The translations under genes were made by a program, and so were the position numbers. 32,000 nt of DNA. Source: Candidatus Thorarchaeota archaeon. Its GTDB lineage: Archaea; Asgardarchaeota; Heimdallarchaeia; Hodarchaeales; Hodarchaeaceae. The stretch lies in contig JBHLRO010000002.1 of NCBI GenBank assembly GCA_048882505.1, forward strand, positions 1-32,000. Reading direction: 5' to 3'. The notes beneath the pieces were generated by a model. The model saw only the letters and a list, made by a program, of their open reading frames with translations. It was not told where the DNA came from and searched no databases. Numbering within the stretch: position 1 is the first letter of the stretch; every line of letters begins with the position of its first letter. Positions 5,965 through 32,000 of this stretch are shown in pieces.

Positions 5965-6070
5965 TGGGGACGGCGAGATTCGAACTCGCGACCTCTTGGT
6001 CCCGAACCAAGAATCATCTGGTCACCGCTCGTACACCAAGACAACAATAACCAAGCTAGACTACGTCCCC
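5965..6070 (-). tRNA. tRNA-Pro(CGG) with a 31-nt D-loop intron (21/22; 6017-6047)
   Basis: Acceptor GGGGACG/CGTCCCC, anticodon arm CTTGG-TTCGGGA-CCAAG, T arm GCGAG-TTCGAAT-CTCGC; BHB central helix TGGT/ACCA with bulges TA|T and GA|T. Confidence 0.93.
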
Positions 6071-6093
6071 TATAATTCAAAAAATCATGGGGA

Positions 6094-6501
6094 TTAAAGG
6101 TCTTCAAATCCTTCTTCAATTTCAGCTTCTTCATCAGGCACAACCCCCTCGGTGGGCTGAGGTTTGGGGGCAGCAAGGCGTTGTGCCACATATTCCCCAT
6201 ACTTTTCTAAGAGCCTTTCAATTTGATCATTATTCAAGCGCTCTCCAAGGACGCCACGTACATCAACTGGTGTTTTCGGATTAATATTTACCAATTGAAC
6301 TGCCAATATGCGAGGTATATCGAACTCCGTCATTAGCGCAGAGAGGATCTCCTCAGAATATGCGGCATCCTTAGACAATTTTTCTGCATGTTGGGCAGTT
6401 ACTCGTTGGACATAATTGATGCCTGCCTGTTCTCGAATCAGGAGAAGCTCGTGAACTCGACCTAGAGGGATAGGCTTTTCTTCTAAGATTTTTCGTACCA
6501 T
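6094..6501 (-). CDS. rpo4: RNA polymerase subunit Rpo4 (RpoF)
   Basis: ILEEKPIPL...V..LL, INYVQRVTAQHAEKLSK and LAVQLVNINPKT; conserved position downstream of rpl21e; acidic tail. Confidence 0.88.
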   Translation of the reverse strand: MVRKILEEKPIPLGRVHELLLIREQAGINYVQRVTAQHAEKLSKDAAYSEEILSALMTEFDIPRILAVQLVNINPKTPVDVRGVLGERLNNDQIERLLEKYGEYVAQRLAAPKPQPTEGVVPDEEAEIEEGFEDL

Positions 6502-6527
6502 TCAACTACATCCTATGATCAAATCAG

Positions 6528-6824
6528 CTAGGCCATCTGTGTCCGAAGGTGTTCTGGGCGAGCTATGATTTTCTTCTTTGCTTTACCATCAGTGACTTGA
6601 ACCACGTAACTTGCCCCCCGTTTTTCCAAGACAACTCCCGTTTTCCCATGGAAACGTCTATGGGGGCGGCCTTTCTGAACACTAGGTTCTATCACAATAT
6701 TGACTCGGGAATCTATCGCATATTCTCTAAGTGAGTGTGAAATTGGGGGTAGGCCACGATTGCGGGGATGCTTCGAAAAAACGCGTCGTGTCCGAAAATT
6801 GGTACCCTTAGATTTTCTGACCAT
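6528..6824 (-). CDS. rpl21e: Ribosomal protein eL21
   Basis: SKGTNFRTR, IEPSVQKGRPHRRFHGKTG and KKIIARPEHL. Confidence 0.97.
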   Translation of the reverse strand: MVRKSKGTNFRTRRVFSKHPRNRGLPPISHSLREYAIDSRVNIVIEPSVQKGRPHRRFHGKTGVVLEKRGASYVVQVTDGKAKKKIIARPEHLRTQMA

Positions 6825-6990
6825 TTTTAAAAACCTCTGGTGCCTTATAAGAGGAACAGAGAGCCTGAGGATGCTTTTATCTTGGAAGCGACGAGAGAAG
6901 CTATTTTTTTCTTTCTATTTGTTATTATTGTTGTTTCAGATTTTCTTGTCTGATTTGTTTATGAACACGGTATTAATCCAATGGCGTTAT

Positions 6991-8343
6991 TTAGAGAGAT
7001 GATTCCGGAGAAAATACCTTAATTACATCCAGATATTTCACTGTTGCTTGTGTCCCTACCAGACCTGCAAAATTCGGCTGGGTGCGTTCCTCATCACCGT
7101 TAATTAACTCTTTCACATAAAGCCCCCCTTCACAGACGATATGAATTGTCACATATTCGGTTGTAATTGATTCGATTTCAAAGCTAATTACCTTTCGCGT
7201 TCGAATCTTATCTGCACGCCGGTGAGAGACACGAACTGGCGTTCGTTGTTGGATAACAGAATTGGACAGATGCTTAGCTGCGGCATAAAGGCGGTCTTCA
7301 GTTACATTTCTTTCCGGTTCCAAAACCACAATTGCGCGATATCCTTTGGCAATGCGGCTGGACTGGGTTTTGAGTTCACGAACCTTTGTTCGCGTTGTAA
7401 GGCCATCAAATTCAACCTCGACTTTTCCCTGCGCGTTCTGGTCAATAGTGGCTTTCAGCTGAGCCAGATTGAGAGTACGTTTCTTTGGTTCAGAAATTTC
7501 AAGTGTAAACGGTCTGCCGTCTCCCAACATTCTAGCATCAATATCTTCTCGGCCTGCCCCATGAAACTTACTATCGACTCCCTGTGCTGCTGCAAGAACT
7601 GGTCCCGAGATAAACTCTTCAACTGATTCTTGGTACATTTTTCCTGTAGATCCACATCTCTCACATCCTTTACCTCTACATTCTCTACAAAACCACTTGG
7701 ATTGGGGAATTCCACGAGCCAGCTTGCGATAACGGCCTAGAATGAACAACGGGTTACTCTTGAGCTTCACCTCGTTTTTAACCAGGTCAAAAAGAATAAC
7801 AAGATCAGGGGCCTTAAAATCCACTTCGCTGTGTGGTAACTCAGATAGGATGCGTTTTCCGATTTCCCGATTGAATTCAGATTTAATGGATTCACCAAAC
7901 TCGATGCCAAATGTACTTCGAATATTATCCTCGCCATCTAAAATATCAGAAGGAAATCGGCATCCTACTAGGAATGTCCTAAATTCATACTCCGTCAACT
8001 GTGGAACCACATCTCGGACATGTCTTTCCAGAGTATCCTCCGATAATCGATCCTTACAGATTTCACAAATCGAATTGTCAAAGGAAATTTCCGGGTAGTA
8101 CCGTTGGACCGAAGTGTTCCCTACAGGAAAACCTTTTGCAAGCAATGAGGTCTTTGGGAGTTCTTTCGTAACCAATCGATAATTGTTTTCCCATTCCATT
8201 AGTAATGCGATCTTAAGGGCCTTCCCCCGCTCCATATTTGAAAGTCCCGATAACAGGTTGCCGAACTGTCTCCCAAGGCAGGAATTGCAGCAGTGAAAAG
8301 TTTCGATCAGCTGTTTGGCTTTCTGTATGATTTGCAACTCCAT
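6991..8343 (-). CDS. pus10: tRNA pseudouridine(54/55) synthase Pus10
   Basis: N-terminal CCNSCLGR...CEIC, THUMP region, GRYRKLARGIPQSKW, catalytic HGAGREDIDARMLG, QQRTPVRVSHRRAD and GGLYVKELINGD. Confidence 0.96.
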   Translation of the reverse strand: MELQIIQKAKQLIETFHCCNSCLGRQFGNLLSGLSNMERGKALKIALLMEWENNYRLVTKELPKTSLLAKGFPVGNTSVQRYYPEISFDNSICEICKDRLSEDTLERHVRDVVPQLTEYEFRTFLVGCRFPSDILDGEDNIRSTFGIEFGESIKSEFNREIGKRILSELPHSEVDFKAPDLVILFDLVKNEVKLKSNPLFILGRYRKLARGIPQSKWFCRECRGKGCERCGSTGKMYQESVEEFISGPVLAAAQGVDSKFHGAGREDIDARMLGDGRPFTLEISEPKKRTLNLAQLKATIDQNAQGKVEVEFDGLTTRTKVRELKTQSSRIAKGYRAIVVLEPERNVTEDRLYAAAKHLSNSVIQQRTPVRVSHRRADKIRTRKVISFEIESITTEYVTIHIVCEGGLYVKELINGDEERTQPNFAGLVGTQATVKYLDVIKVFSPESSL

Positions 8344-8507
8344 CGATAAAGACCACCAAGGTTATTAGGGCATCATGGCCCCCTTGATATGAAGTCTGTT
8401 AGTCATCAGATTGAGGGGAATGGGAGGTTATTTGACGATGCGAGATTTAATCAGGGTTTCGAAGCATTCGGTAGATCTGTTTTACGGCCCAGGAAGGCGT
8501 ATGAATC

Positions 8508-9056
8508 ATGTCCCGACATTTTATCATCCTCTCGAACACGGTAGATTGTAGAAAACCCCTCTCGTTGAATAATTTGACTGGATTTGGGCGGTTAGATGTT
8601 CTCTGTCGTTGTATTACAGCCACCTTCTTTCTTTCAAATGCTTTCCGCAGGGAGACTCAACTTAGCATCTTTTTCCGTTTGAACGAGCTGCTTCTTAACA
8701 TTAACGGAAAAAAGGCAGAGGGAATCAATCCTGATGAACGTAGCATAGCAGGTGTTTTGAAACGCGTCTTTAAAGGGAGAATCTCACGGGGAATTACTTT
8801 GGTTCCAGCTACCCTCCAAGAGATCTTGACTTTCCACCTCCCAACTGTCCTTGATGTTCACGGGAATAAAAATTTCACCGAGCTCACTCAGCAAGATGTC
8901 TTTCTCATTGGTGACCAAATTGGATTTACAGACACCGATAGACAAATGTTCTCGGATGTTAGCAAGGTGGAAAGTCTAACCATTGGATCACACGTCTACC
9001 TAAGTTCACAGACCATTACCATCCTCCACTATCTGCTCGACCAAATTCATAAGTAA
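8508..9056 (+). CDS. trmY: tRNA (pseudouridine(54)-N1)-methyltransferase, SPOUT
   Basis: GRLDVLCRCI...SNAFRR, INPDERSIAG, FLIGDQIGF and SLTIG...YLSSQTI; divergent from pus10. Confidence 0.9.
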   Translation: MSRHFIILSNTVDCRKPLSLNNLTGFGRLDVLCRCITATFFLSNAFRRETQLSIFFRLNELLLNINGKKAEGINPDERSIAGVLKRVFKGRISRGITLVPATLQEILTFHLPTVLDVHGNKNFTELTQQDVFLIGDQIGFTDTDRQMFSDVSKVESLTIGSHVYLSSQTITILHYLLDQIHK

Positions 9057-16851: not shown

Positions 16852-16982
16852 TTTTTACAGATTTACATAATTAGATAACTGAACTATACATTTTGACTAT
16901 CATTTTAAGGATCGATAGGATGACTTGGCCTGAACTATTAGTTGATTGGAATCCAAGTAAAGGAGTTACAAACCTATTGAAA

Positions 16983-17915
16983 ATGGTCATTGTTGGGCAG
17001 GAGTCGTTTGCGGGGAAGATAGCAGAAAATATTTCATCAGCGAGGTTTTTTCCTCTTGAAAAACGCTTGTTTCCTGATGGAGAGGTATGTCCACGATTAG
17101 TGATTTCCGATCCTAGTCAATTGGAAGGTACTCATGCCATTGTTGCATTGCAATTGGAATTGGGCCAATGTGTGAACCAATACTTAGTTTCTTTACTGTG
17201 GACACTCTATAACGTGAAGCGCTATCGACCAGCGATCCTCACATGCATCATGCCATATCATCTGTACTCTAGACAAGACACAGAATTCCGAGAGGGAGAA
17301 CCGTTCTCCAGTCGATATCTAAGCGAGGCTTTGGAAGCTGCCGGTATTGACAATTTTATGACGGTCAATTCTCACTCATATGGTAAGACGGATCTGGGAT
17401 ATTTTTTCCCTAAATCACGAGCGATTGGTTTGTCGGCTGTTTCAACCCTAGCCCGAGCGTTGAGAGAGCATCTAGACTCACCTGTGGATGTAATCTGCTT
17501 CTCACCCGATGAGGGCGCACTACAATTGGCCCAAGAGGCCGCTCAAGGTCTTGGGTCACCATATTATGGGGCCATTAAGAAAGAGCGAGACCGTGATACA
17601 GGAGTAATTACTCAGACATTCATGGGGGTTGGTATTCCCGTAGAAGGGCATCCAGTTGTGATTATAGATGATTTGGTAAGTTCAGGGGGAACCATGATGG
17701 GAGCCGCAGAACTTCTCAGAGAAAAGGGAGCAACAGATGTGTATTATCTTTATACACATCCTGTACATTCTTCAGAAAGATTCAAACGGATACTCGAATC
17801 CAAACCCCGTATGGTGTTTGCTTCCGATACCATTAAAACAAACTTTAATGGGATGACGGTTGTTAGTGTAATTCCCCTTCTTAGTGACGCAATTAAGCGC
17901 CTGCCAAGTGCCTAG
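16983..17915 (+). CDS. prs: Ribose-phosphate pyrophosphokinase
   Basis: FPDGE, PYHLYSRQD..F..GE, SPDEGA, KKER and IIDDLVSSGGTM; ATG at 16983 preferred over the track start at 16893. Confidence 0.93.
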   Translation: MVIVGQESFAGKIAENISSARFFPLEKRLFPDGEVCPRLVISDPSQLEGTHAIVALQLELGQCVNQYLVSLLWTLYNVKRYRPAILTCIMPYHLYSRQDTEFREGEPFSSRYLSEALEAAGIDNFMTVNSHSYGKTDLGYFFPKSRAIGLSAVSTLARALREHLDSPVDVICFSPDEGALQLAQEAAQGLGSPYYGAIKKERDRDTGVITQTFMGVGIPVEGHPVVIIDDLVSSGGTMMGAAELLREKGATDVYYLYTHPVHSSERFKRILESKPRMVFASDTIKTNFNGMTVVSVIPLLSDAIKRLPSA

Positions 17916-17922
17916 GAAGTAA

Positions 17923-18087
17923 TTAACTAGGTCGGTGTCTATCTATTAACTCACGAATGGCCGAACGGACGAATTCTGAGCGGTTAGGATATTTTCCTTT
18001 TCGAACGAGCTTTGCCATTTCATCGATATCTTTTTCGTCTATATAGATCGTTACTGTGCGGATGATATCTACCCCTGCTGGAAACAT
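17923..18087 (-). CDS. Ribbon-helix-helix (CopG-type) regulator, CdrS-like
   Basis: RTVTIYIDEKDIDEMAKLVRKGKYPNRSEFVRSAIRELI; ATG at 18087 preferred. Confidence 0.82.
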   Translation of the reverse strand: MFPAGVDIIRTVTIYIDEKDIDEMAKLVRKGKYPNRSEFVRSAIRELIDRHRPS

Positions 18088-18167
18088 AAAGGAATTTCCA
18101 GCATAAGATAGTTCTTCATAGACTAAAAAAAGCTTACCGCAAAATTTTGCATCCGGGACTGAAATCA

Positions 18168-19478
18168 ATGCAGCAGACCCAAGAACAGAAAAAAAAAGTA
18201 TCAGTGATGAATTATGGCTGTACTGCCAATCTCAGTATAGCTGAGGGAATGATGGGTATTTTACGGAACACTGGTTATACTATCACGTCATCAGTTGATG
18301 AGGCGGACACGGTGGTGGTAAACACCTGCATTGTAAAGCAAAACACGGAGCATCGAATGAAAAGTCTCCTATTGTCCTTGGCCGAAACAAAAGAGGTCGT
18401 TGTCACAGGCTGTCTGCCCGTAGCGATGCAGAGTTGGGTCGAACAACATGTCCCTGCCGCCAAAATTCTGTTTCCGGAAAACGCAGATCAGCTCCCTGGA
18501 TTGTTGGAGGACATACCACTTGTTAACACCTCTTGGGAAGATCCCGTCGACTGGGCCCGTCTTTACGATGCTCCACGAATCCGTTTCAATCCGGTGGTAG
18601 GTAATATTGAAATTAGCCGAGGGTGCCTCGGCCAATGCACATTTTGTATTGTCAAAAGCACAAAAGGGCATCTTCGGTCACGTAGCCCAGATAATATTCT
18701 CCATGAGATCAAAATCGCCCTTACAACGGGAGTTAAGGAGATACGGTTAACCTCGCAAGATGTGGGACCATATGGCTGGGACCTAAGGCCACGACAGGAT
18801 ATTACTTCATTATTGTGTTCAATTGCTACTCTTCCAGAGCAATTCTTTGTAAGACTCGGGATGATGACCCCTAAATCTGTGGCAAGATATATAGATCCAC
18901 TTATAGAGCAGCTAATGCAGGAAAAGATCTATACACATCTTCACCTTCCAATCCAATCAGGGGCCAACTCAATACTCCGTGCGATGCGTCGTCTGGAGAC
19001 CGCAAAATATTTCACCGATCTAGTTCACCACTTGAGAGAAGAAGTTCCTATGTTTACCCTAGCCACAGATGTAATCGTCGGTTTCCCCGGAGAATCCCCA
19101 CAAGATTATGCAGCCACCCGTAACCTACTTAAAGAAGTTCGACCCGCCATTGTTAACCTTTCTAAATACACAGATCGACCTGGAACATCTGCAGCCCAAA
19201 TGGGCAATAAAGTACCTTCCCATATCAAGGCAAAGCGAAGCCAAGAAATAGGAACCCTTATTCGTCAAATTACATACAGTGAACTGAAAAAATGGGTAGG
19301 ATGGGAAGGGACGATGTTAATCAATGAACGTGGAAAATATCCCGACCAGTTTGTCGGGCGAAATTCGTCCTATTTACCTGTGGTGCTTTCTGGGGGTAAT
19401 CTTAAGCTAGGAGATTTCATTCAGGTTCAAATAATAGATGCGGGGCCAACCTATCTCATGGGCGAAGAAAAACGTTAA
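18168..19478 (+). CDS. tRNA methylthiotransferase, MtaB/e-MtaB (ms2t6A37) type, radical SAM
   Basis: UPF0004 domain (YGCTAN, VNTCIVK, TGCLP), CLGQCTFC, TDVIVGFPGE and a C-terminal TRAM-like segment; ATG at 18168 preferred. Confidence 0.9.
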   Translation: MQQTQEQKKKVSVMNYGCTANLSIAEGMMGILRNTGYTITSSVDEADTVVVNTCIVKQNTEHRMKSLLLSLAETKEVVVTGCLPVAMQSWVEQHVPAAKILFPENADQLPGLLEDIPLVNTSWEDPVDWARLYDAPRIRFNPVVGNIEISRGCLGQCTFCIVKSTKGHLRSRSPDNILHEIKIALTTGVKEIRLTSQDVGPYGWDLRPRQDITSLLCSIATLPEQFFVRLGMMTPKSVARYIDPLIEQLMQEKIYTHLHLPIQSGANSILRAMRRLETAKYFTDLVHHLREEVPMFTLATDVIVGFPGESPQDYAATRNLLKEVRPAIVNLSKYTDRPGTSAAQMGNKVPSHIKAKRSQEIGTLIRQITYSELKKWVGWEGTMLINERGKYPDQFVGRNSSYLPVVLSGGNLKLGDFIQVQIIDAGPTYLMGEEKR

Positions 19479-19538
19479 ACCTTTTAATTTTCGGTGAATT
19501 CATCCTCTTAAGAATTAAAATCCCCTTAGAACGGATTA

Positions 19539-19546
19539 TTTAAATA
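19539..19546 (+). promoter_or_regulatory. Candidate TATA box for tRNA-Leu
   Basis: TTTAAATA starting 36 nt upstream of the mature tRNA 5' end. Confidence 0.55.
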
Positions 19547-19574
19547 GTTTGAAATGTAGAATGCCCCGTTTGAA

Positions 19575-19740
19575 GCGGGGGTAGCCAAGCCAGGTCAAAG
19601 GATATCAGGGCTAGATGGTAACTCTATGTTATCGCAAGGTGCCGACCAAAGGCGCTGGACTTAAGATCTGTTGGCTTGATGGCCATATATAGGTGATCCA
19701 GTCTTATAGAAGTCCGGGGGTTCAAATCCCCTCCCCCGCA
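19575..19740 (+). tRNA. tRNA-Leu(TAA) with two introns: D-loop 21/22 (19599-19649, 51 nt) and 37/38 (19666-19695, 30 nt)
   Basis: GCGGGGG/CCCCCGC, CTGGA-CTTAAGA-TCCAG after splicing, long variable arm; BHB GGTC/GACC (AA|A, AA|A) and CTTA/TAGG (AG|A, TG|A). Confidence 0.93.
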
Positions 19741-19760
19741 TTCATTTTTTTAATAGAAGG

Positions 19761-20549
19761 ATGTTGAAACATTGGAGAGGCCATGTCTTGCATAATCCAT
19801 ACGAGAAGAAGACTCTAGGAGACACTTTGTCGGTCGTATTAGTTGGGCCTTCAAAACCACAGAATTTAGGAAGCATTGCACGTGTTGCAATGAATTTTGG
19901 GATTTTGAATCTCATTCTCGTTGATCCTGCTTTGGATATCACGGATCAGGGTCATCTTTCAGAAATAATGGCCGTGGCAAGGCGAGCAGGAACGATCATC
20001 GATTCTGTCAGAATTTTTGATGATTTTCAAACAATAAGAGACAACTTCAGATTTTTAATTGGAACTACGGCCCGTACTGGTGGCGATTATAATCTACTGC
20101 GTGTAGCACTGCCACCAGAAGCGTTGCTATCCACTGATATTGGGAGTGAAAATCTGGCGGTTGTATTCGGTCGTGAACAGTACGGCCTTTCTAATAAAGA
20201 AATCGGCCTTTGCGACTTGGTAATCAGCATTCCAACAGAGAAAATTTACCCAGTCATGAATCTCTCTCACGCCGTGGCAATTATACTTTATTTTCTGTAC
20301 CAAAGATTTTGTAAATTGCCCCAAACCATGGATGATGGTCCTAAACACCGAGCGGCAAAATATCAAGAAAGACAGCAACTACTCGAATATTTCGAACAGG
20401 TAATTCAACGCTCAAAATATTATCCAGAAAAGCAACGGGTTGCGAAGCAAGCATTCTCAAACGTCCTCTCCCGAGGTTATGTTACTGGACGGGAGGTATC
20501 GACTCTGTGCGGCGTTTTGAAATGGATTGCCCTTAACCTGACAGACTAG
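19761..20549 (+). CDS. trmJ: tRNA C32/U32 2'-O-methyltransferase, TrmJ/TrmH SPOUT family
   Basis: PQNLGSIARVAMNFG, IGTTAR, VFGREQYGLSNKEI and VMNLSHAV. Confidence 0.88.
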   Translation: MLKHWRGHVLHNPYEKKTLGDTLSVVLVGPSKPQNLGSIARVAMNFGILNLILVDPALDITDQGHLSEIMAVARRAGTIIDSVRIFDDFQTIRDNFRFLIGTTARTGGDYNLLRVALPPEALLSTDIGSENLAVVFGREQYGLSNKEIGLCDLVISIPTEKIYPVMNLSHAVAIILYFLYQRFCKLPQTMDDGPKHRAAKYQERQQLLEYFEQVIQRSKYYPEKQRVAKQAFSNVLSRGYVTGREVSTLCGVLKWIALNLTD

Positions 20550-20622
20550 ATGGAACTTTTAAATCAAAGTTTAGGGGGAAAGAATGGCTCAAAACTCTAT
20601 AAAAAATCTTCAAGAATGGTTT

Positions 20623-20693
20623 GCGCCGATAGTCTAGTGGTAGGACTCCAGTCTGCCACACTGGTGGCCCGGGTTCGAGTCCCGGTCGGCGCA
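20623..20693 (+). tRNA. tRNA-Gly(GCC), no intron
   Basis: GCGCCGA/TCGGCGC, CCAGT-CTGCCAC-ACTGG and CCGGG-TTCGAGT-CCCGG. Confidence 0.97.
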
Positions 20694-20695
20694 TA

Positions 20696-21706
20696 CTATC
20701 GTATACCTCCTTGAAAGGCATCCCAACCTCGCATTGGGACGGGCGTGGAAGTACCACCAACTTCTAGAAAGACGCCAGAATTTGATACACATTCCCCGAT
20801 TACAAGGTATTTTAGATCATTCTGCTCAAAAGTACGTTTTAGCTCGTCTAGTTGCGCAGGGGAGATAGTGAAAACAAGAACATATTCCTCTCCGCCGTAT
20901 AGAGTGATATCTTGGGCCACCAAATTTGTTTCTAAATATGGTTCAAGTTCGGGGTAGATTGGTAGCGTACGGAGTAAAACTCCTACATTTGAGGCTTGAG
21001 CTAGCCAGTGAAGGGATATGGCTAATCCATCTGAACAATCAATTGATGCTGTTGCCAACCGATGCTCACTGAGCACCCTTCCAGCTAAAATTTGTGGCAT
21101 AGGCTCGAAAAGAAGGTTCAATGCACGGTTCATAAGATCAGTGGGCACCTCAGAGACTCTCCGCTGTTCAGAAGATAGAAGGTAATCAAGTCCTATCGTA
21201 GTAAGGCCAAAATAACCCGTAACACATACTAGATCTCCTATGGCAGCATCACGTCTAGTCAAGATTTTTCCTGATGGAATGGATCCAATTCCCACACCCG
21301 TCAAGACCGTTTCTTGTGAAGAGCCTAGGTCTCCACCTAGGTATCGGGCCTGGTATTTATGGGCTGTAATTTGGATCGATGAAACTAACTCTTTCAGTTC
21401 CTCTTCATACATAGAGTTTTCAAGTGCCAGTGATGCCAAGAACAGTTCAGGCAGCGCTCCTTTTGCCGCGAGATCAGAAAAAGTTGTTGCAACAAGTTTG
21501 GTTCCAATTTGGGACCAGGTTTGCTGTGGAAGAAAATCAGACGCCCTTGACATGGTATCTACATTTACGAGAATGTGCGGAGGGGTGTTAGAGTAGAGAT
21601 AGGCATCCTCGTTTTGTCCTAGATGAGGCGTTGTATCCAAAAACGCTTGTAATAGTCGGATTGTTGCTACTTCCCCTAATTTTCCTAATGTTTTCAGATG
21701 CGTCAT
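20696..21706 (-). CDS. thiL: Thiamine-monophosphate kinase
   Basis: LGEVATI, NEDA, SDLAAKGA, LGGD, RRDAAIGD, IDCSDGL and GGEEY. Confidence 0.92.
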   Translation of the reverse strand: MTHLKTLGKLGEVATIRLLQAFLDTTPHLGQNEDAYLYSNTPPHILVNVDTMSRASDFLPQQTWSQIGTKLVATTFSDLAAKGALPELFLASLALENSMYEEELKELVSSIQITAHKYQARYLGGDLGSSQETVLTGVGIGSIPSGKILTRRDAAIGDLVCVTGYFGLTTIGLDYLLSSEQRRVSEVPTDLMNRALNLLFEPMPQILAGRVLSEHRLATASIDCSDGLAISLHWLAQASNVGVLLRTLPIYPELEPYLETNLVAQDITLYGGEEYVLVFTISPAQLDELKRTFEQNDLKYLVIGECVSNSGVFLEVGGTSTPVPMRGWDAFQGGIR

Positions 21707-21781
21707 CTTGAGAGTCTTATTTGTGTTTCATTATAAGAAGATTTTAAGACGTGACGCCCTAAGGTATTAATTGAGTGAAAA

Positions 21782-22915
21782 ATGAGTACTGAGACGGTTG
21801 AGACCTCCTCTGAAGCAATTCCTACTAACGTTGATTCACGCGCCAAACTTCGGGCGTTTATTCTACCTATCATCGCTGTAATATTGCTAGCGATCGTATT
21901 TTCCGTTATGACCTTGAATTTCTATCAGGGCATACAGCAAGCACCTCCTGACATTTCTCCCGTTCCAGAAAACCCTGATGATCCAGTAGGCGGCATTGCA
22001 CAAGGGGCACTCCTCAATATGCTCTTCTATGTGGGCGTGGCGTTCCTTGGAGGAATTCTGGTGTTGATCATAATCAGGAAGGGGCTAATCCAGCTCCTGG
22101 TCTACTTTTTTGCCGCGATGATGGGATTTTCCTGGTTCGTTTTTGGGTTGTTTTATGGCACTATTGTCCTGGTCGAGGGATTAGATCTAATTTGGTTGTG
22201 GCTTCCCCCCTTTATCCAAGCTGGAATTGAGGAATTTTTAGCATGGAAGATTCTGGTAGGAACACAAGAAATTTCTGTCATTGAGATACTAATTTACGCC
22301 TTCGCACTTCTTTTAGGGTTATTAGGTACGGTTTCATTCGGGATTCAGACGTTTGACCGAATCTGGGTGCGGAATGGGATGATGGTGTTTTTTGGAGCCA
22401 TGCTAGGTTCGATGCTTGCGATTCATCTTGGATTGCTTACTGTATTTCTCATCTTGATAGGATTGGCTGTCTATGATATCTACGCGGTGTTCCGTGGGCC
22501 CTTGAAAGGCATTATTGATCACGGACGTCAGACAGCTGCAGAGGTGGAAGAACAAATGCAATTCCTTGAAGAGAATGGTATCAAGTATGAGAAAGTGCCC
22601 CTGCTTCCTGCGTTGCCTGTATACTCCACTCCGCTTATAAACATTGGACTCGGAGATTTCGCTTTCTTTAGCATGCTTGCGAGCGCTGTGGTCGTTATCA
22701 GTAGTGGACTAGCCAACTTTTTTCCGCTTCTTGCGACCCTTGTGGGATTGTTTATTGGCGCTTATTATACTTTTAAGTTTTTAGAAGAAGAACGGGCCTT
22801 ACCTGGACTTCCTCTCCCTATATTCGGAGGCATGGGGTGTCTTATCCTAAGTGTTCTCGGCGGATTGATCCTGGGGGTGTTTACCTGGGACTCCATAATA
22901 GCATTATTCGCCTAA
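21782..22915 (+). CDS. Presenilin-family GxGD intramembrane aspartyl protease
   Basis: About 9 hydrophobic helices; YDIYAVF, IGLGDF and RALPGLP (PAL-like). Confidence 0.9.
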   Translation: MSTETVETSSEAIPTNVDSRAKLRAFILPIIAVILLAIVFSVMTLNFYQGIQQAPPDISPVPENPDDPVGGIAQGALLNMLFYVGVAFLGGILVLIIIRKGLIQLLVYFFAAMMGFSWFVFGLFYGTIVLVEGLDLIWLWLPPFIQAGIEEFLAWKILVGTQEISVIEILIYAFALLLGLLGTVSFGIQTFDRIWVRNGMMVFFGAMLGSMLAIHLGLLTVFLILIGLAVYDIYAVFRGPLKGIIDHGRQTAAEVEEQMQFLEENGIKYEKVPLLPALPVYSTPLINIGLGDFAFFSMLASAVVVISSGLANFFPLLATLVGLFIGAYYTFKFLEEERALPGLPLPIFGGMGCLILSVLGGLILGVFTWDSIIALFA

Positions 22916-24000: not shown

Positions 24001-25524
24001 CTAGCCTGGTACAGGGGTTTTTGTCGGGAGAATTTGACGACCATTTCGGAAATAAGCCCAAAAGACTAGCACAGCCGCCAGATAAAACACTGTGGCCAGA
24101 ATGAAGGGTGAATAGAAGTCCCCAATATCCATCATATAGGAACCCAATAAGAATCCAACAGCAGTGAAGATATTCATTCCAGCTACTCTTAGTGCTTCCA
24201 TAGTTACCCGTTCGGAATCATTTACCACTTCCATAGCAAGGGCAGACTCAGTCGGAGTAGTTGCATTCATGAAAAATCCACGGAGTAGATAGAATCCCGC
24301 CGCAACCAGTAATCCTGGAGCAAAAGGAAGGAGCAGTAAAAATGGAAGGCTTAACAATCTGGTGCCTACAATAACTTGGACTTTTCCAAACTTCTCTGCA
24401 ATGATCGGCGAGGTAAAATTTCCCAAAGCAGTAGCCAATGCGCCTAGTGCGAAAACCACTGCAATTTCCGCAGGATTAGCATTAAAGAATAACAAAAAGA
24501 ACAGCGAAAAGAAATAAACGAACATTCCAGCCCCTAATCCGATGCAGATTGCACTCAACACAAAAACCCCTACAGTTCCCCAGTTTGTCACGTTTTTGAA
24601 GCTCATTCTTGTTGTAATTGATTCTTGTGCCCGTTTTCGAAGAGCAGGATCCTCACTCAAAAATATAGCAGGAATAAGACTTCCTAACCACAAAGCTACT
24701 GAGACCAAGAGCCCAATCTGTAATACAAATATGGCGGCGGTTCCAGATACAACTGCTGTTTGATATAGAATCAAAGCAATTCCTAGGGGAACCACACCTC
24801 CCAAGAGGTTACCACTCATCATAGCTAATGTGGACATACCGTCTATGGTCGAAAACAAATAAACTCGTTCTTTTTCAGAGCTTTGCTCATATATGAAAGG
24901 ATTTTCAGCGATATTATGTATAGACATCACTGCAGAGCGAATGATCTGCGCTACAACGATAACCCAGGGCACAGGCCATAGAATCACAATCAAAATCATG
25001 ATCGCTCCCCAGAAATCTCCAAAAATAAATGACCATTTCTTCCCGATTCGGTCAACGAAAATTCCTGCAAAGGGAGAAATAATTCCGGATATCAACGAAC
25101 CAATAGCAAGGAGGATCCCCACAAAGAAAACTGCGCCTATTGTGACTCCGAAAAACTCAATACCAGCAGGAAATAAGTACAGTAGATAAATATTGAACAG
25201 TACGGTTCGGACGCCATAGGTAAAGGACATACCTTGTATGTGGGCTGAAAATTTCTTCGCGTTGTCCGAGAACGCGATAATCTTTTGATAATATGTAACA
25301 GGAGAGAGTATATCTCGACGTGGCTTAATAAATAACCAAATTGAAAAAGTTAGAATCGATAGAAACAAAATGAGAGCCAGTACGACAAGTAATAACTGAA
25401 CGGGACCAGCACCGTCTCCAGTATCGAGAATCCCCTCAGAGAGACCTTCATGAGCAGAAGCTTGATAAACAATCGTAAAACTGAGTATAACGATGAATGA
25501 GAGAAGTAATTGACGTTTCCTCAT
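24001..25524 (-). CDS. MFS transporter with extra N-terminal signal peptide + HEG loop + TM helix
   Basis: Motif A-like GIFVDRIGKK and AEKFGKV, about 12 TM from residue ~95; N-terminal extension of about 90 aa. Confidence 0.9.
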   Translation of the reverse strand: MRKRQLLLSFIVILSFTIVYQASAHEGLSEGILDTGDGAGPVQLLLVVLALILFLSILTFSIWLFIKPRRDILSPVTYYQKIIAFSDNAKKFSAHIQGMSFTYGVRTVLFNIYLLYLFPAGIEFFGVTIGAVFFVGILLAIGSLISGIISPFAGIFVDRIGKKWSFIFGDFWGAIMILIVILWPVPWVIVVAQIIRSAVMSIHNIAENPFIYEQSSEKERVYLFSTIDGMSTLAMMSGNLLGGVVPLGIALILYQTAVVSGTAAIFVLQIGLLVSVALWLGSLIPAIFLSEDPALRKRAQESITTRMSFKNVTNWGTVGVFVLSAICIGLGAGMFVYFFSLFFLLFFNANPAEIAVVFALGALATALGNFTSPIIAEKFGKVQVIVGTRLLSLPFLLLLPFAPGLLVAAGFYLLRGFFMNATTPTESALAMEVVNDSERVTMEALRVAGMNIFTAVGFLLGSYMMDIGDFYSPFILATVFYLAAVLVFWAYFRNGRQILPTKTPVPG

Positions 25525-25694
25525 GAAAAGACCAAGTATGCTCTATACACCCGCCTTCCATCCAATCGGTTGAAATTTGGTCTTATTCGAAAATCATAGC
25601 ACGAATAACCTGAAAAGCTCTTGAAATAGGCATAAAAAGTTTGTACTGACTTGGTCAAGGATTTGAAAAACATTTGATAATATTTATGAAATTT

Positions 25695-25976
25695 TTACAA
25701 TCCAAGATCCTTCCTTAGCTCTTTGTACATATTCAGGCCAATTTTCGTTAAAGTATAGCATTTTTTATTCTTCACTATCTTCGATCGAATCAAATTCCAT
25801 TCGTTGAGTTGTTTCACTCGTTTTGTCACGGCAGCATCAGACTTAGCATATATTGTCTTTTTTAAAACCTTTGTTGGGATAAATGGGTCTTTTTTTTTAC
25901 GCCTATTCCCCAAAACTTTGATGATGTTCAATATAGAAGCGGGATATTTTACCATGAGTTCACTCGGAGGAGGCAC
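25695..25976 (-). CDS. Small basic winged-helix DNA-binding protein
   Basis: SDAAVTKRVKQLNEWNLI...KKCYTLTKIG (wHTH recognition helix plus wing YxLTxxG); start may be the ATG at 25955. Confidence 0.72.
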   Translation of the reverse strand: MPPPSELMVKYPASILNIIKVLGNRRKKKDPFIPTKVLKKTIYAKSDAAVTKRVKQLNEWNLIRSKIVKNKKCYTLTKIGLNMYKELRKDLGL

Positions 25977-26313
25977 CAGCTCTTTTTTGCGCCAATTTAT
26001 ACTCTTCCTTCGTCAATCCGCTTTTACTCAATATTAAACCCTCTTATTTTCTAAACTAACCATTTCCTCCTCTTACTATGGCAAACGTTATTTCTCCCCT
26101 TCGTTCTTTTCTTGGAATTACTATTTGCTTTCTCTTGAGCCTATCGCTTTTTGATGTCCATTGCCTAGGGCTAGAGATTCTTTCTCTTTTTTTGCGGTTT
26201 GAATCCGACAAAACCGTTTTACCAGAGAAGGGCCATAGCGTTGCTATAAATAACCGAAAAAAATACAAATATACGAATTTCGTAGAAAGTATCCGATCTA
26301 TAAGATCGGATGA

Positions 26314-26808
26314 ATGAGGTTCAAGGAGGTGAAAAAAACGCGTTATCGAGGGAAAGCAGCTTTAGTTCTGTTCTTAGTGGTGCTATCTTTCGTTGGGTTG
26401 ACTAATACGTTCCCAGTTAAGGCCTCAGACGTGTATAAAATAACCGTAAAGACTTATTACCTCTACGTTGATTATGAAACGTACGATAGTGGTGAGAACG
26501 GTGAATTCAGATTTCAGTGTAGCTATGAAAGTGATCACTCGCCTCTATATTCTAGCAATATATGGAGCCTCCCAAGTTATAGCTCTCGAAGTTATCAGGA
26601 GGTGATAGATGTAGAATGGCTTCCATGGTATGACAATGTTTATTTGCGGCTTATAGAATATGATTATGGGCCCTACGATGTCGTAATTAATTGGCATAGT
26701 AAATCAGTGTCTTCATTGCATAATGGTAATAACATTATTACCTATTATGACGGTACAGGGTTAATCTGTAAATTTCTAGTGATAAAAGAAGATTTTGGTA
26801 TTGGTTAA
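26314..26808 (+). CDS. Secreted beta-rich protein, possibly C2-like
   Basis: Basic N-region, hydrophobic core and VKA|S cleavage-like site; Tyr/Asp-rich strands; DSGENGEFRF and YLRLIEYDYGPYDVV. Confidence 0.7.
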   Translation: MRFKEVKKTRYRGKAALVLFLVVLSFVGLTNTFPVKASDVYKITVKTYYLYVDYETYDSGENGEFRFQCSYESDHSPLYSSNIWSLPSYSSRSYQEVIDVEWLPWYDNVYLRLIEYDYGPYDVVINWHSKSVSSLHNGNNIITYYDGTGLICKFLVIKEDFGIG

Positions 26809-26853
26809 CAGTCTGATTTCTTAGTTTCCCTGAATCCATCCAATTCATGATAG

Positions 26854-26883
26854 GCTGTGCCGAACTCGGCACAGCTTTTTTTT
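26854..26883 (+). terminator. Perfect 10-bp GC-rich inverted repeat followed by T8
   Basis: GCTGTGCCGA-AC-TCGGCACAGC-TTTTTTTT, 45 nt after the stop of 26314-26808. Confidence 0.7.
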
Positions 26884-27111
26884 CTCATCCAAGGGTTAAG
26901 ATATGCGAAATAGCAGAAACGCGTCATGCACTTAGTCTGAAAGAGGCATGTAGACAAAATTAGACACTATTCATAAAGCTTTTAATCTAAGTAAAACATT
27001 GAAATAATGCAAATGGTCTTGTATCCAGCTGCGGTCAAGTTCAAAAATGGGGTAAATTCCTAATAGCTAGGTTTGTCAGCATTGAGGTAGATTTATGAGG
27101 TTCAAGGGAAA

Positions 27112-29997
27112 TTGAAACGACTCCTGGTTCTGAAAGAAAAGATCTTGTTTTTCATCCAAGCACTACGAATAAACCTATATGTTTCCTTAATTACACTAAT
27201 TGGGTTAAGCATTGCTCTTTCTACTGTCTCATCTTCTTTGCTTTATTTGGAAACGAGTCGAAGCAATTATTACCTCTCCTTGCTAGAACAGGATTATTTT
27301 GAAGCAAAAGTAATCTTTGAACACCAACCAAATACAATTCAAAATTTCGATAAAATGGATATCTTGACACTCCAAGAAGCTCTTGAGCAAGAAATCCAGA
27401 TGCGTGGATTAGAGAGGGAATTTTCCCGCCACCCGCTTTCTCCCATTTTTTACTTAAGGAATAGGCTGGAGTTTTTAAATCAAAGCGATTGGGATAGCTT
27501 TTACGCCTTCAATTTTAATGAATCAATTCTTGCGGATTGCATTGAAGGGAGCTATCTGCCAACAACTATGAACCAAACGATTCTTCTTACTTGGTCAGTT
27601 TTAGATTTCAAGGTTAACGATCAATTTAATATTTCATTCCGTAACTATAACGAAGATAAAGTATACTACACCCACACCTTGCAGATCTCGGGGATAATTA
27701 CGCCCGATACGTTAAGAAAAACTTCCCCCCTAAATGATTATTTCTTTTTCCGCGGGGCTGATCCTAATAGAATTGTCATTCTTACTGATTTAGGAGAATT
27801 TACCAAACTATTTGGCAAAATCGATACAAATGTTCGTGGATTAACGAATTCAGACCTTCTTGCTTTCACTCTGATGTTTCGGTTTAATTTGCAGGTCTCG
27901 CATATTGGAGATCAAAACGCAATTCAGATCCTTCCCCAGTTAGTTTCCTTCTTGAAAGAGACAGGTAAAGCTTTTCGTCTTAATGGCTTTTATTTGAATA
28001 GAGTGTGGCAACATGAGCTTTCCGAGCTAATCAGTAATGTAGAAGAGTTTAATTTTTCCTTTTTTTATTTTCTGATTCTTTGTATTCCGATTTTTTCCTT
28101 GACAATCCTATTGGTAGGATTTTCTCTACGTCTAACAACTGAACGAAGAAAAAAGCGTCTTACCTTGTTTCAAATGCGTGGGATTTCGTCGAGATCCTTA
28201 ATGGGTATTCTTTTTATCGAAACTCTAGTTATTTCTTTGATGGCATCTTTGATCAGCATCATTCCTGGGACCCTGGGATGCCTATTGATCCTTACAACAA
28301 GTGGATTCCTAACTTTCAATTTTCAATCAATGCCTGCCCTTCTGGTAATTCCACAGAATTTTTTTGGCGTAATTTTCATCATAAGTGTTTGTTTCACCAG
28401 TACGACTTACCTCTGGCCTATGTTTCGCTTAATTAAATCCACGCTTCCGTTTTCGATCCAAAATTCTGAAACTAGAAAAAAAACCCAAAGGAGTTCGTTT
28501 ATTGGGAACCTTGATCTCTTTCTCTTCATTCAAGGCCTCTTGGGACTCTTGGTTTTGATTTTCATTATGCAAGTTATCAAGGAAACGCATTCAACTATTG
28601 GAACCCAGCTCTTGAACCTTCTTCTGCCGCTCATTTTCTTGTTAGTGATATTAAGTCCATTTAGTTTCCTAATTGGATTCATTTTCACCTATAATCGGTT
28701 TATCCCCTCAATAATTCAGAGAATCGGGAATTATTGCTGGAAAAAGGATTGGGGCCTCTTAGCCACCGCCTCAAGAAATCTTGCTGTCGATATAACAATA
28801 ACACGTCGGACTACTCTCCTTACTGCTTGTACCTTGAGTTTCCTAATGATTTTGTCCAGTCTACCGCTCTCCTACTATCATTATGATATTGATCAACGTT
28901 TCTACAACGTTGGAGCTGATGTGAGTATAAGCGGTATTTCTTCCGAATCGGAAGTGGTTCAGGACTTGAAATCCCAATTGACCGCGATAGGAGGATTAAA
29001 TGTCACCATAATTTCAAGAACGGGATTCGATGTTCTTGATGCCAATGGGGTGGTACATTCTCTTCTTTTCTTAGGAATAGAAGAGAACTTCCTTCAAGTT
29101 GCTCATTGGCGAAGCTATTATGATGATCAACCACTCTCCGAATTAGTCTTGTCGTTGTTCAATTCGTCTGAGTTGTATCCCGTTCTTATAGACACCTCTA
29201 CGGCCCGAGAAGCAAATTTGACTGTAAAAAATATTTATCGGCCTTTTATCCAAGAACCTGAAGTGATGGAATTCTCCGTGATTAATGTGAATGATTTTTG
29301 GCCTGGTTTCATTTTGACACGGCAAGGAAATTATCATTACCTAATAACAAAGAGAGAATTGATAGAGAATATTTCAAAAACTATTCAGAGATATGCGCAA
29401 AATCATGATGACATTGTTGGATTTTGGGCTTTTGGTGATCGAATTTTGGGGAAGCTACTTCCTGAATATGATCCTAACGATGTTATGACTCAAATAATGG
29501 ATGTGACTAGTGCAGCTGAAGATGAATACGATGTAGTTACTGCTCGATCAAGGTTAGAGCGAGGGTACCAAAAGCTTTTAGATCAATTTTTGTGGATAAT
29601 TACCAATTTTAATTTCGTTGACTCACTCATCATCGTTCTGATCGTCATTTCTCTCTTTACCTTGATGCGACTATCAGGTCATGCGACTGAACTTGGCCTA
29701 AGTAGAGCTTTGGGCATGAAATACCCCCAAGTGTTTTTTTTGATGTTTATGGAACCACTGTTGCTATTTCTGATAAGTGGGATCCCTGGAGGTTTTGTGG
29801 GATTAATAATATTGGCTTTTTTTGCGGCATGGCTTTCCCCACTCCTTTTGTCTCCTCCACCATTTCTCTTGACCCTTAACTTCCCTGTTTTTATCTCAAT
29901 ATATGGAACAGTATTTGCGGCAACGGCGTTCGCTGGAGGACTCACAGCTCTCTTGGCGACAAGAGCCAACATTTCGAAGATTTTAATGGTGGAATGA
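27112..29997 (+). CDS. FtsX/MacB-type ABC permease with two FtsX domains
   Basis: ERRKKRLTLFQMRG and ELGLSRALG FtsX motifs, two large extracellular loops, TM clusters; TTG start. Confidence 0.88.
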   Translation: MKRLLVLKEKILFFIQALRINLYVSLITLIGLSIALSTVSSSLLYLETSRSNYYLSLLEQDYFEAKVIFEHQPNTIQNFDKMDILTLQEALEQEIQMRGLEREFSRHPLSPIFYLRNRLEFLNQSDWDSFYAFNFNESILADCIEGSYLPTTMNQTILLTWSVLDFKVNDQFNISFRNYNEDKVYYTHTLQISGIITPDTLRKTSPLNDYFFFRGADPNRIVILTDLGEFTKLFGKIDTNVRGLTNSDLLAFTLMFRFNLQVSHIGDQNAIQILPQLVSFLKETGKAFRLNGFYLNRVWQHELSELISNVEEFNFSFFYFLILCIPIFSLTILLVGFSLRLTTERRKKRLTLFQMRGISSRSLMGILFIETLVISLMASLISIIPGTLGCLLILTTSGFLTFNFQSMPALLVIPQNFFGVIFIISVCFTSTTYLWPMFRLIKSTLPFSIQNSETRKKTQRSSFIGNLDLFLFIQGLLGLLVLIFIMQVIKETHSTIGTQLLNLLLPLIFLLVILSPFSFLIGFIFTYNRFIPSIIQRIGNYCWKKDWGLLATASRNLAVDITITRRTTLLTACTLSFLMILSSLPLSYYHYDIDQRFYNVGADVSISGISSESEVVQDLKSQLTAIGGLNVTIISRTGFDVLDANGVVHSLLFLGIEENFLQVAHWRSYYDDQPLSELVLSLFNSSELYPVLIDTSTAREANLTVKNIYRPFIQEPEVMEFSVINVNDFWPGFILTRQGNYHYLITKRELIENISKTIQRYAQNHDDIVGFWAFGDRILGKLLPEYDPNDVMTQIMDVTSAAEDEYDVVTARSRLERGYQKLLDQFLWIITNFNFVDSLIIVLIVISLFTLMRLSGHATELGLSRALGMKYPQVFFLMFMEPLLLFLISGIPGGFVGLIILAFFAAWLSPLLLSPPPFLLTLNFPVFISIYGTVFAATAFAGGLTALLATRANISKILMVE

Positions 29998-30001
29998 TAG
30001 C

Positions 30002-30886
30002 ATGCTCCTAGAATGTAAAGACCTCATTAAAATCTATTCGTCACCCGTTGAGGGCCTAAATTTTCCCGCACTTCGTGGGTTACATTTCTCACTCCGAGGA
30101 GGAGAAATGGTCTCAATCATCGGCCCTTCGGGCGCAGGAAAAACCACGCTATTTCGCTTGATCAGTGCCTATGATCGACCAAGCTCGGGGGAAATCTGGT
30201 TTGAGGGGGATCTGATCAATCAGTTTTCTGAGGCTGAATTATCAGAATATCGAAAGAAGATAGGCATAATGTACCAATCACCTAGAGAGAACTTGGTATG
30301 GGGAATGAATGCATTGGATAATGTATTATTTCCTATGCGATATTCCGGGAGGTTTATTCCCTATCACAAACAAAGAGCGCGTGATTTACTAAAGAGAGTG
30401 GGGCTAAAGGGGAAAGAATCAAGAAAACCAGCACAGCTTTCAGGGGGCGAGCAACAGCGAGTTGCCCTTGCAGTGGCCCTTGCGAATGAGCCCAGCTTGT
30501 TACTTGCCGACGAACCTACTGGAGAACTCGACAGTGTTACAACATCCGTAATAATTGATTATTTTAAAGAATTAAATGAAGAACTTGGGGTAACTATCTG
30601 CGTGGCAACCCATGACCATCGTTTTTCTACCAGAACCGATCTTACTTATCAAATTCAAGATGGACGATTAACTGCATATCAGTCTCAGAAGGAGGGGATT
30701 CTAAGTTCTGAAGAACGAGAGGAAATGGCCATCATTGACTCCAATGGAAATATAAGGCTGCCGGATGAAGTCTTAAAGCATTTTGAGGGTGTCACTTCAG
30801 CGAAAGTGGTTGTGAAGAAGGATAAGATCGAATTGGTAAATTTAAGTTCAGACCAAAAGAAGAAGAAGGTAGAGAGGGATGACTGA
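30002..30886 (+). CDS. ABC ATPase (LolD/MacB type) with C-terminal AbrB-like domain
   Basis: GPSGAGKT, LSGGEQQRV, LLADEPTG and THD; tail IIDSNGNIRLPDEVL. Confidence 0.93.
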   Translation: MLLECKDLIKIYSSPVEGLNFPALRGLHFSLRGGEMVSIIGPSGAGKTTLFRLISAYDRPSSGEIWFEGDLINQFSEAELSEYRKKIGIMYQSPRENLVWGMNALDNVLFPMRYSGRFIPYHKQRARDLLKRVGLKGKESRKPAQLSGGEQQRVALAVALANEPSLLLADEPTGELDSVTTSVIIDYFKELNEELGVTICVATHDHRFSTRTDLTYQIQDGRLTAYQSQKEGILSSEEREEMAIIDSNGNIRLPDEVLKHFEGVTSAKVVVKKDKIELVNLSSDQKKKKVERDD

Positions 30887-31583
30887 AAACGAATCTCTAT
30901 TTAGATTAGAGAACCTACATCGATATTATGTCAACAAAGCTGAAATTGTAAAAGCAATCGACGGAATTGATTTAACCATCAATTCTGGGGAGTTTGTTGT
31001 CATTTTAGGCCCCTCGGGGTCTGGAAAAACAACATTACTAAACTTGCTTGCTGGACTAGATAAAACTACAACGGGTTCTATATATTTTAACGGGCAAGAC
31101 GTGTCCCAACTTAGTGATTCTGAACTTTGTCACATCAGACAATTTGACATAGGAATCATATTCCAGTTTTATAATATGCATCCAGCGTTTAATGTCCGAG
31201 AAAATGTGGAGTACCCCATGTTGATCTCTAAAGTTCCACGAGAAAAAAGGCGAAAAAGAGCTAGTAATCTACTTCAACGATTGGGGGTATATGAGAAACG
31301 AGAAAGTTTACCCTCAGAATTGTCGGGCGGAGAAAAACAGTTGGTAGGAATTGCTAGAGCATTGACAAATGACCCCACGGTTATTATTGCCGATGAACCA
31401 ACAGGAAATCTCGATTCCGAAAATGCTGCTTCGGTAATTGAAATCCTTTTGACAATAAATAGGGAAGGAAAAACTATAGTAATGGTAACTCATGATGAGA
31501 CGTTGGTAAAGGAAGAAATGCGCGTTTTGACGCTAGTAAATGGAAAAATAAGGACTCATGGTGCCGACTCCACTGGTCCGTAA
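30879..31583 (+). CDS. ABC ATPase (LolD/MacB type)
   Basis: GPSGSGKT, LSGGEKQ, IIADEPTG and VTHD; overlaps the upstream gene by 8 nt. Confidence 0.95.
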   Translation: MTENESLFRLENLHRYYVNKAEIVKAIDGIDLTINSGEFVVILGPSGSGKTTLLNLLAGLDKTTTGSIYFNGQDVSQLSDSELCHIRQFDIGIIFQFYNMHPAFNVRENVEYPMLISKVPREKRRKRASNLLQRLGVYEKRESLPSELSGGEKQLVGIARALTNDPTVIIADEPTGNLDSENAASVIEILLTINREGKTIVMVTHDETLVKEEMRVLTLVNGKIRTHGADSTGP

Positions 31584-31689
31584 CTTTGAAACTTAGTTCA
31601 AGCATATTTTTCCAGTCTCCTGGGGCCCCGTTTTTTTATCTGAATGGGCGCCTCGCCTCTCAATATTTAAATGAATATGAAATCGGCTT

Positions 31690-31941
31690 TTACCGAATAT
31701 TAAACCCTTTGCCGAAGTTCAGCTCGATGCAAAGGTCACAGGGCAAGGAACTCTTTATTTTACTAATAATGCTGGCAAAGATAAGAAGACCGAGTCCAAC
31801 TAGGGCGGATTGGATGGGGCCTGTCACATCCCCCGTATCGAGAACCGTATCATGGTACCCTTCATGGGCTGTGACAGTTTGACCAAGTACGAAGAGGGGT
31901 AAGAAAATTAGACCCAATAAAAGCGTATACGGTTTTCTCAT
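31690..31941 (-). CDS. 83-aa membrane microprotein: signal peptide, HEG-x4-LDTGD-x2-GP loop, TM helix, CxxC tail
   Basis: Colinear homology to the N-terminal appendage of the MFS at 24001-25524 supports coding status; ATG at 31941 preferred over 31953. Confidence 0.72.
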   Translation of the reverse strand: MRKPYTLLLGLIFLPLFVLGQTVTAHEGYHDTVLDTGDVTGPIQSALVGLGLLIFASIISKIKSSLPCDLCIELNFGKGFNIR

Positions 31942-32000
31942 GGTAGAACCCAAACAGAAGTTAATCCTGAAGAGGAGGATTAGGGATTACTCTACGGGAT

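Follow-up and report, generated by a model that had tools for sequence, protein, structure and literature searches.

A probable 6.5 kb replacement in a Heimdallarchaeial MFS transporter gene that accounts for a duplicated His-led N-terminus

Introduction

Why should a transporter gene and a small open reading frame (ORF) on the same stretch of an archaeal chromosome begin with the same short motif? The question is posed by the first 32,000 nucleotides of contig JBHLRO010000002.1 from a Candidatus Thorarchaeota archaeon (assembly GCA_048882505.1), a stretch that we refer to in its entirety as the window. One of its ORFs, P0001, encodes a major facilitator superfamily (MFS) transporter; the other encodes a protein of only 83 residues. 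Both N-termini follow the layout signal peptide-A/HEG-x4-LDTGD-x2-GP-transmembrane helix (TM), where the slash, here and below, marks the predicted cleavage site. A sequence-only reading of the locus had taken the small ORF for a free microprotein and the shared N-terminus for a portable extracellular metal-binding or sensing module. Comparison with related genomes points to a different answer. The two copies are very probably alleles of the 5' end of one gene, an ancestral uninterrupted MFS gene that was hit by a 6.5 kb insertion/replacement, and the small ORF would be what remains of the original start of that gene.

Results

The N-terminus of the MFS protein reads MRKRQ...YQASA/HEGLSEGILDTGDGAGPVQ (printed further beyond the junction, HEGLSEGILDTGDGAGPVQLLLVV) and that of the 83-residue protein ...QTVTA/HEGYHDTVLDTGDVTGPIQ (further, HEGYHDTVLDTGDVTGPIQSALVG). 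BLASTP aligns the two without gaps, with 20 of 44 positions identical and 29 of 44 similar (E 4e-12), and at the DNA level the window has exactly two occurrences of the 10-mer GTATCGAGAA (25421-25430 and 31835-31844; expected 0.08), which codes for (I/V)LDT. Both the common protein pattern and the common 10-mer had been pointed out in the sequence-only reading, and both are borne out. No Pfam family covers the first 75 residues of the MFS protein, in which the MFS_1 match starts at about residue 100. The likeness of the two N-termini is true homology and, in the light of the genome comparison below, very probably that of two alleles of one gene's 5' end and not of two independent genes.

The origin of the small ORF is indicated by a genome of the same genus, the Heimdallarchaeota metagenome-assembled genome (MAG) TM2S.58 (hereafter G016, with contigs C88 and C146). 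The best matches of the 83-residue protein among the genomes of relatives lie at the N-termini of G016 open frames of 529 and 523 residues, and the C88 and C146 frames each encode a 508-residue MFS protein; residues 1-59 share 93% amino acid identity with the former and 80% with the latter. The uninterrupted C88 gene is the positional orthologue of the window MFS gene, with the same downstream genes, for proteins of 377, 336, 262 and 443 residues, as are found at 16940-22915 of the window. In blastn comparisons, positions 341-576 of C88 (locus L024) match window positions 32000-31765 at 96.2% identity and positions 685-8991 match 25242-16940 at 90.4%, and the segment of the window between these two blocks (Table 1) occupies the place of 108 bp in G016, which correspond to MFS codons ~60-95. 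The DNA of the small ORF follows the G016 gene to codon ~57-59 and then diverges completely (alignment A4), and its tail (codons 60-83, including the PCDLC motif) aligns with nothing in G016 or in any homologue. The 93% identity of residues 1-59 to the C88 transporter, together with the syntenic breakpoints, argues that the resident MFS gene had its 5' end stranded, and that the 83-residue ORF consists of this end (promoter and codons 1-59) followed by 24 codons of read-through. What had been read as a free microprotein would thus be a 5' stub left by the 6.5 kb replacement, which the sister genome lacks. A second whole copy of the MFS gene lies on the 3.1 kb contig C146 (locus L023) at 87.5% DNA identity to the window gene; it may be a true paralogue or reflect strain heterogeneity, the G016 MAG having 8% contamination.

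The 5' end of the window's own MFS gene resembles G016 only from about codon 100. Compared with either G016 orthologue in bins of 30 residues, P0001 is 41-57% identical across residues 1-90, 73-80% across residues 91-120 and 83-100% thereafter. This step in identity shows P0001 to be a chimera, with foreign codons 1 to ~94 joined to resident codons ~95-507 in a gene that has stayed intact. The protein matches Pfam MFS_1 (PF07690) at 91.9 bits against a cut-off of 33.4 (E 5.1e-26), and its AlphaFold2 (AF2) model (predicted local distance difference test score, pLDDT, 81; predicted template modelling score, pTM, 0.80) shows 12 core helices after an additional N-terminal helix, TM0. The top Foldseek matches of this model are NorA, NupG and VMAT2 (probability 1.00; TM-score 0.8 by target). 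A phmmer search of PDB sequences matched no chain, and the score of 28 bits for TIGR00900, the DHA3 / 2.A.1.21 H+ antiporter model, is far below its cut-off of 319.6 and places the protein outside that subfamily. No partner gene from which a substrate might be guessed is conserved in the neighbourhoods of homologues.

Metagenomic assemblies provide further views of both arrangements. The Logan assembly of run X1 contains a 10-kb contig that crosses 24900-32000 in one piece, and an independently assembled contig from X2, a different sample taken in the same sediment study, covers 31438-32000, the 31765 junction included, and shows a single difference. Contigs from a third sample, X3, part from the window sequence at positions 31777 and 25197; their continuations match the intact C88 gene with 1 and 0 mismatches and translate to LGIIVFSVRL and SLMYGVRTIL. 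The interrupted and intact alleles therefore co-occur in one sediment study, which suggests that the event was recent.

Table 1. Positions of the transporter gene, the small ORF and the intervening segment in the window
Feature	Position	Strand	Description
MFS ORF (P0001)	24001-25524	-	507 residues
Predicted TM0, codons 42-66	25327-25401	-	Extra helix; Kyte-Doolittle peak 3.0 at residues 44-62; AF2 helix 41-66, pLDDT 70-83
Predicted extracellular peptide, codons 25-41	25402-25452	-	HEGLSEGILDTGDGAGP; invariant His25 and L33-D34-T35-G36 (alignments A1, A3, A5)
Predicted Sec-type signal peptide, codons 1-24	25453-25524	-	MRKRQ n-region, h-region, c-region A-S-A; AF2 pLDDT < 50
Inserted segment	25243-31764		6522 bp; absent at the orthologous G016 locus
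Winged-helix-like (wHTH) gene	25695-25976	-	93 residues; immediately upstream of the new MFS 5' end, in the same orientation
28-nt direct repeat, left copy	26015-26042	+	25/28 identical to the right copy
Predicted secreted or membrane-anchored protein	26314-26808	+	164 residues; no Pfam match above cut-off, no NCBIfam match
FtsX-type ABC permease	27112-29997	+	961 residues; Pfam FtsX E 1e-12
ABC ATPase	30002-30886	+	294 residues; Pfam ABC_tran (the two ATPases, E 1.6e-33 and 3.6e-35)
ABC ATPase	30879-31583	+	234 residues; Pfam ABC_tran (as above)
28-nt direct repeat, right copy	31681-31708	+	Overlaps the stop codon of the stub ORF
Small ORF (putative stub)	31690-31941	-	83 residues counted from ATG
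Putative stub, codons 60-83 and stop	31690-31764	-	Apparent read-through into inserted DNA; includes PCDLC ('CxxC')
Putative stub, codons 1-59	31765-31941	-	Leader, His26 ectopeptide and the larger part of TM0, apparently from the resident MFS gene before its interruption; amino acid identity to the G016 copies 93% (C88) and 80% (C146)
Upstream region (putative original promoter) of the resident MFS gene	31942-32000	-	Kept before the stub; within the 96.2% blastn block with C88

That the 83-residue ORF might nonetheless be a functional single-pass membrane microprotein, acting as a partner, decoy or regulator of the transporter or as a metal or redox relay with its His outside and its CxxC inside, and that it arose or is retained in its own right, is a proposal that we regard as improbable. 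It draws on the fact that the frame is open, with its ATG, leader, ectopeptide and 18-residue hydrophobic stretch intact, and that the native upstream region is kept at 96% identity. The ORF is, however, unique to this genome: a near-length search returned only the ORF itself, neither 5.8 billion clusters nor 1.84 billion representatives yielded a small homologue, and its nearest relatives are the full-length MFS N-termini of G016. Residues 60-83, which hold the CxxC on which a relay would depend, appear to be read-through of inserted DNA, and with the intact allele still present in the same sediment, a recent event would have left scant time for selection. Weak matches elsewhere were set aside as unrelated, namely a zinc-ribbon/TM protein in the same genome (C1:359696) and membrane proteins in relatives (E > 0.01; loci L006, L008, L011 and others). 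If the stub is produced, it is, speculatively, most likely to be a neutral by-product of recent origin.

There is very little to recommend the opposite polarity, in which the interrupted arrangement would be ancestral and the G016 gene would have become contiguous through a deletion when the two modules recombined. Homologous modules in direct repeat, separated by 6.4 kb, are in principle able to do so, but nothing in this genome corresponds to G016 codons ~60-95 (108 bp), and from the would-be crossover to about codon 95 the identity of G016 to P0001 is only ~55%; moreover, both G016 copies and all Heimdallarchaeal and Kariarchaeal homologues are contiguous. A mis-assembly of two strains or loci, to which a MAG of 83 contigs with 3.7% contamination might be prone when a G016-like strain is present in the same study, is just as hard to credit, since the separate Logan contig of X1 runs through the whole region, the X2 contig crosses 31765 and the chimeric MFS reading frame is perfectly kept over the 25242 junction.

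A search of the class with residues 1-100 of P0001 found the extension only on MFS genes of 498-521 residues, in G016 and in 7 of the 12 genomes of a second family; the named records that bear it are Candidatus Heimdallarchaeota and Kariarchaeota MAGs. Positions A24, H25, L33, D34, T35, G36, F54 and I57 are invariant in alignments A1 and A3, in which LDTG is kept in all 11 rows, and H25 is invariant in the 18 full-length proteins of alignment A5, remote bacterial-type homologues included. Two more metagenomic members keep the His (SG/HEEDFGSSLDTGD and SA/HEEPLIRRLDTAS). The acidic motif is less constant among other archaeal-type members, reading LNTG (LNTGE) in P0014 and LDTA in L080 and being absent from P0013, and a remote group of ~504-residue proteins has the form A-x-A/HG(G/D)...AGPL(A/S)W-TM0 without LDTG. 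Thus the expectation that both His1 and LDTGD would be conserved holds for the Ala-His junction, which is invariant in all extension-bearing homologues, and holds for LDTG in most archaeal members only.

An exhaustive hidden Markov model (HMM) search with the first 133 positions against the 1.84 billion representatives returned 41 proteins. All 19 that were read, apart from the stub, continue into the MFS segment FSRNARLY or are MFS fragments, and the remaining matches cover only the TM1 part of the profile. Among those read, every match that reaches the N-terminal positions shows small-x-small/His, with LDTG in P0012, P0009 and P0015. The short matches that were read (P0009, P0015, P0020, P0036 and P0050) all run into MFS TM1, and the more distant P0025, P0033 and P0046 begin at the cytoplasmic FSRNARLY motif and have no extension. 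One family member from an Acidimicrobiia MAG matches in the MFS TM1 region only, and P0065 has a GAF-HisKA_3 kinase and a GerE regulator as neighbours. When a profile of the module alone was run against longer proteins, all 10 matches were PF07690 MFS proteins. The searches found the module only at MFS N-termini, with no stand-alone homologue and no fusion to another protein family; Pfam, NCBIfam and PDB sequences gave no match over it, and we found nothing in the literature on this motif or on MFS carriers with cleaved leaders. The portability claimed for the module is therefore contradicted, since all homologues found are N-termini of full-length MFS proteins or MFS fragments and the module-only profile turned up PF07690 proteins only; its lack of a known family is supported. 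As judged from these homologues, the module is real, narrow in distribution, unnamed and always attached to this MFS clade.

The segment that precedes the His fits the pattern of a Sec-type signal peptide, which calls for a basic n-region, an h-region of 7-15 residues and small residues at -3 and -1; its n-region is basic, and its h-region is short, often with a Pro. In homologues with an unambiguous start codon, the leaders are 17-28 residues long; position -1 is Ala, in rare cases Gly or Ser, and position -3 is mostly Ala, Val or Leu. The junctions read are ASA/H, VTA/H, VSA/H, VRA/H, VDA/H and ALA/H. In several members only 17-19 residues precede the His (e.g., MKKWSIPLLIFPQRVSA/H), which is too short for a membrane span and argues for a cleaved Sec leader. 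Cleavage at this site, directly before the residue encoded in P0001 by CAT (His25), would leave His-1 at the free end of a short acidic ectopeptide that TM0 anchors in the membrane. This ectopeptide is 7-18 residues long and carries a net charge of -1 to -4 in the homologues that were correctly scored. The leader would export the N-terminus and TM0 would return the chain to the cytoplasm, so that the MFS core keeps its N-in orientation. The AF2 model places a short strand at I32-D34 (residues 32-34; pLDDT ~40-70) near the hairpin of the TM1-TM2 loop, a hint that the two may pair.

The inserted segment carries several genes besides the new MFS 5' end (Table 1). The wHTH-like protein has weak matches only, to HTH_45, DUF505 and PRK14165, and a search of 82 further genomes from the class gave no orthologue; it and the 164-residue protein are orphan cargo of the segment. 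The ABC permease has an orthologue in a congeneric genome (G004:C105), the best match in the genus, at 68% DNA identity and with no adjacent MFS gene. The larger ATPase extends ~70 residues beyond the C-terminal end of its ABC domain, with a weak DUF6953 match in the extension; the G004 orthologue shares this extension, and the ABC operon of a further Heimdallarchaeal locus, L063, has a similar layout. The segment holds no integrase or transposase. The 28-nt direct repeat brackets the 164-residue gene and the ABC operon, has only these two copies in the 4.3 Mb genome and could be the trace of a nested cassette insertion or of a promoter piece that was duplicated. The left copy, a short way upstream of the wHTH gene, has the TATA-like sequence TTTAATATT on its minus strand.

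A locus in another Heimdallarchaeal genome offers a separate observation. In L063 (GCA_037928875.1, JAGSHL010000027.1; 9388-10276 and 17380-18045), a 122-residue 3' fragment of that genome's own MFS protein lies 7 kb from a full copy and adjoins a 130-residue 5' hydrolase fragment, of which a full copy is found a further 8 kb away. This pair of fragments flanks a large-permease ABC operon that differs from the window's. The idea of one recurrent MFS-ABC cassette was rejected, as the ABC proteins of the two loci are 28-30% identical and the permeases cannot be aligned, and we treat L063 as a separate event. Stub-leaving insertions of ABC cassettes may nevertheless be recurrent in this Heimdallarchaeal group.

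Discussion

Our findings favor a history in which the ancestral locus, as in G016, held a single uninterrupted MFS gene of ~508 codons, into which 6.5 kb of DNA from an unsampled relative would have recombined in this lineage. One crossover, homologous in appearance, would lie within the body of the MFS gene near codon 95-105, and the other, illegitimate in appearance, at codon 59. The incoming DNA would have brought the first ~94 codons of a divergent allele, the wHTH gene, the gene for a small secreted protein and the FtsX-type ABC operon. The transporter would have been preserved as a chimera by virtue of the incoming 5' end, and the old promoter and codons 1-59 would have been stranded 6.2 kb upstream, reading through 24 foreign codons to a stop. 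The breakpoints, the synteny, the chimeric gene and the confinement of the module to MFS N-termini are shown, and the direction of the event, with the G016 arrangement as the ancestral one, is inferred. Gene stubs of this kind are familiar from insertions and replacements at the flanks of islands and cassettes, and the present case resembles them in that a promoter and 59 codons are followed by unrelated read-through and in that an intact allele is found in a sister genome and in the same environment. It differs from the usual insertion stub in that the incoming DNA brought a homologous replacement 5' end, which left the target gene chimeric rather than inactivated.

Several observations weigh against this account or temper it. 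The putative stub retains an intact ORF, a start codon and its upstream region, so it may be expressed. The 28-nt repeat around the ABC part hints at a separate cassette insertion, and one or two events may be involved. No near-identical copy of the inserted segment was found in its own genome or in 21 congeneric genomes, where ABC operons are only 64-68% identical, and scans of Joint Genome Institute (JGI) metagenome contigs revealed no close relative of the new MFS 5' end; no donor with the wHTH-MFS arrangement or with the exact ABC operon was found in the genome, genus, class and JGI contigs searched. Both alleles were seen in samples of a single study, and the assembly itself probably derives from X1. 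Leader cleavage, and any role of His-1, are predictions from sequence.

Structurally, P0001 resembles the 12-TM antiporter-type MFS proteins NorA, MdfA, VMAT2 and NupG in its MFS_1 match and 12-helix core, and unlike them it adds ~90 N-terminal residues that comprise the cleavable-type leader, the His-led acidic ectopeptide, TM0 and a conserved cytoplasmic linker. To our knowledge, MFS proteins are normally without a cleaved leader. Amino-terminal His residues form copper sites after signal-peptide cleavage in CopC, YcnI, lytic polysaccharide monooxygenases (LPMOs) and PmoB, where they are set in folded beta-sandwich domains with at least one further conserved His. The MFS module shares with these proteins an invariant His right after an A-x-A type site, but it has no folded domain, no conserved second His and no Pfam copper match, and so falls outside their families; a second His is present in some members only (HEGYH, HSEH), and the invariant residues of the ectopeptide are H, L, D, T and G. 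The amino-terminal Cu(II)- and Ni(II)-binding (ATCUN) motif, NH2-X-X-His, does not describe it either, as the conserved His is at predicted position 1 and position 3 is G, E, D or S. The likeness of LDTG to the D-T/S-G signature of aspartic proteases was dismissed as a coincidence of strings, since the motif lies in a peptide of at most 18 residues between a leader and a TM helix and no protease Pfam matches. On a speculative note, the amino-terminal His and nearby carboxylates could bind a cation, or the peptide could dock on the TM1-TM2 loop. A fuller version of this idea, in which the His-1/LDTG peptide is an undescribed extracellular appendage that binds a cation or metal or docks on the protein itself, gates or feeds a small MFS clade in Heimdallarchaeia and remote bacterial-type homologues, at least one of them in an Acidimicrobiia MAG, and competes with an expressed stub, seems to us unlikely.

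In summary, the comparison removes a tempting false lead, as a motif-sharing 'microprotein' beside a transporter appears to be a gene stub whose origin is revealed by a sister genome. The locus provides what is probably a clean natural case, in an Asgard archaeon, of an insertion with replacement of a gene's 5' end, in which the target gene survives as a chimera and both alleles are found in the same sediment. It also draws attention to an N-terminal appendage with an invariant His after a signal-peptidase-type site on an MFS carrier, found from Heimdallarchaeia to remote bacterial-type homologues. This small MFS clade may offer a cheap and testable case of an exported N-terminal peptide that modulates a carrier.

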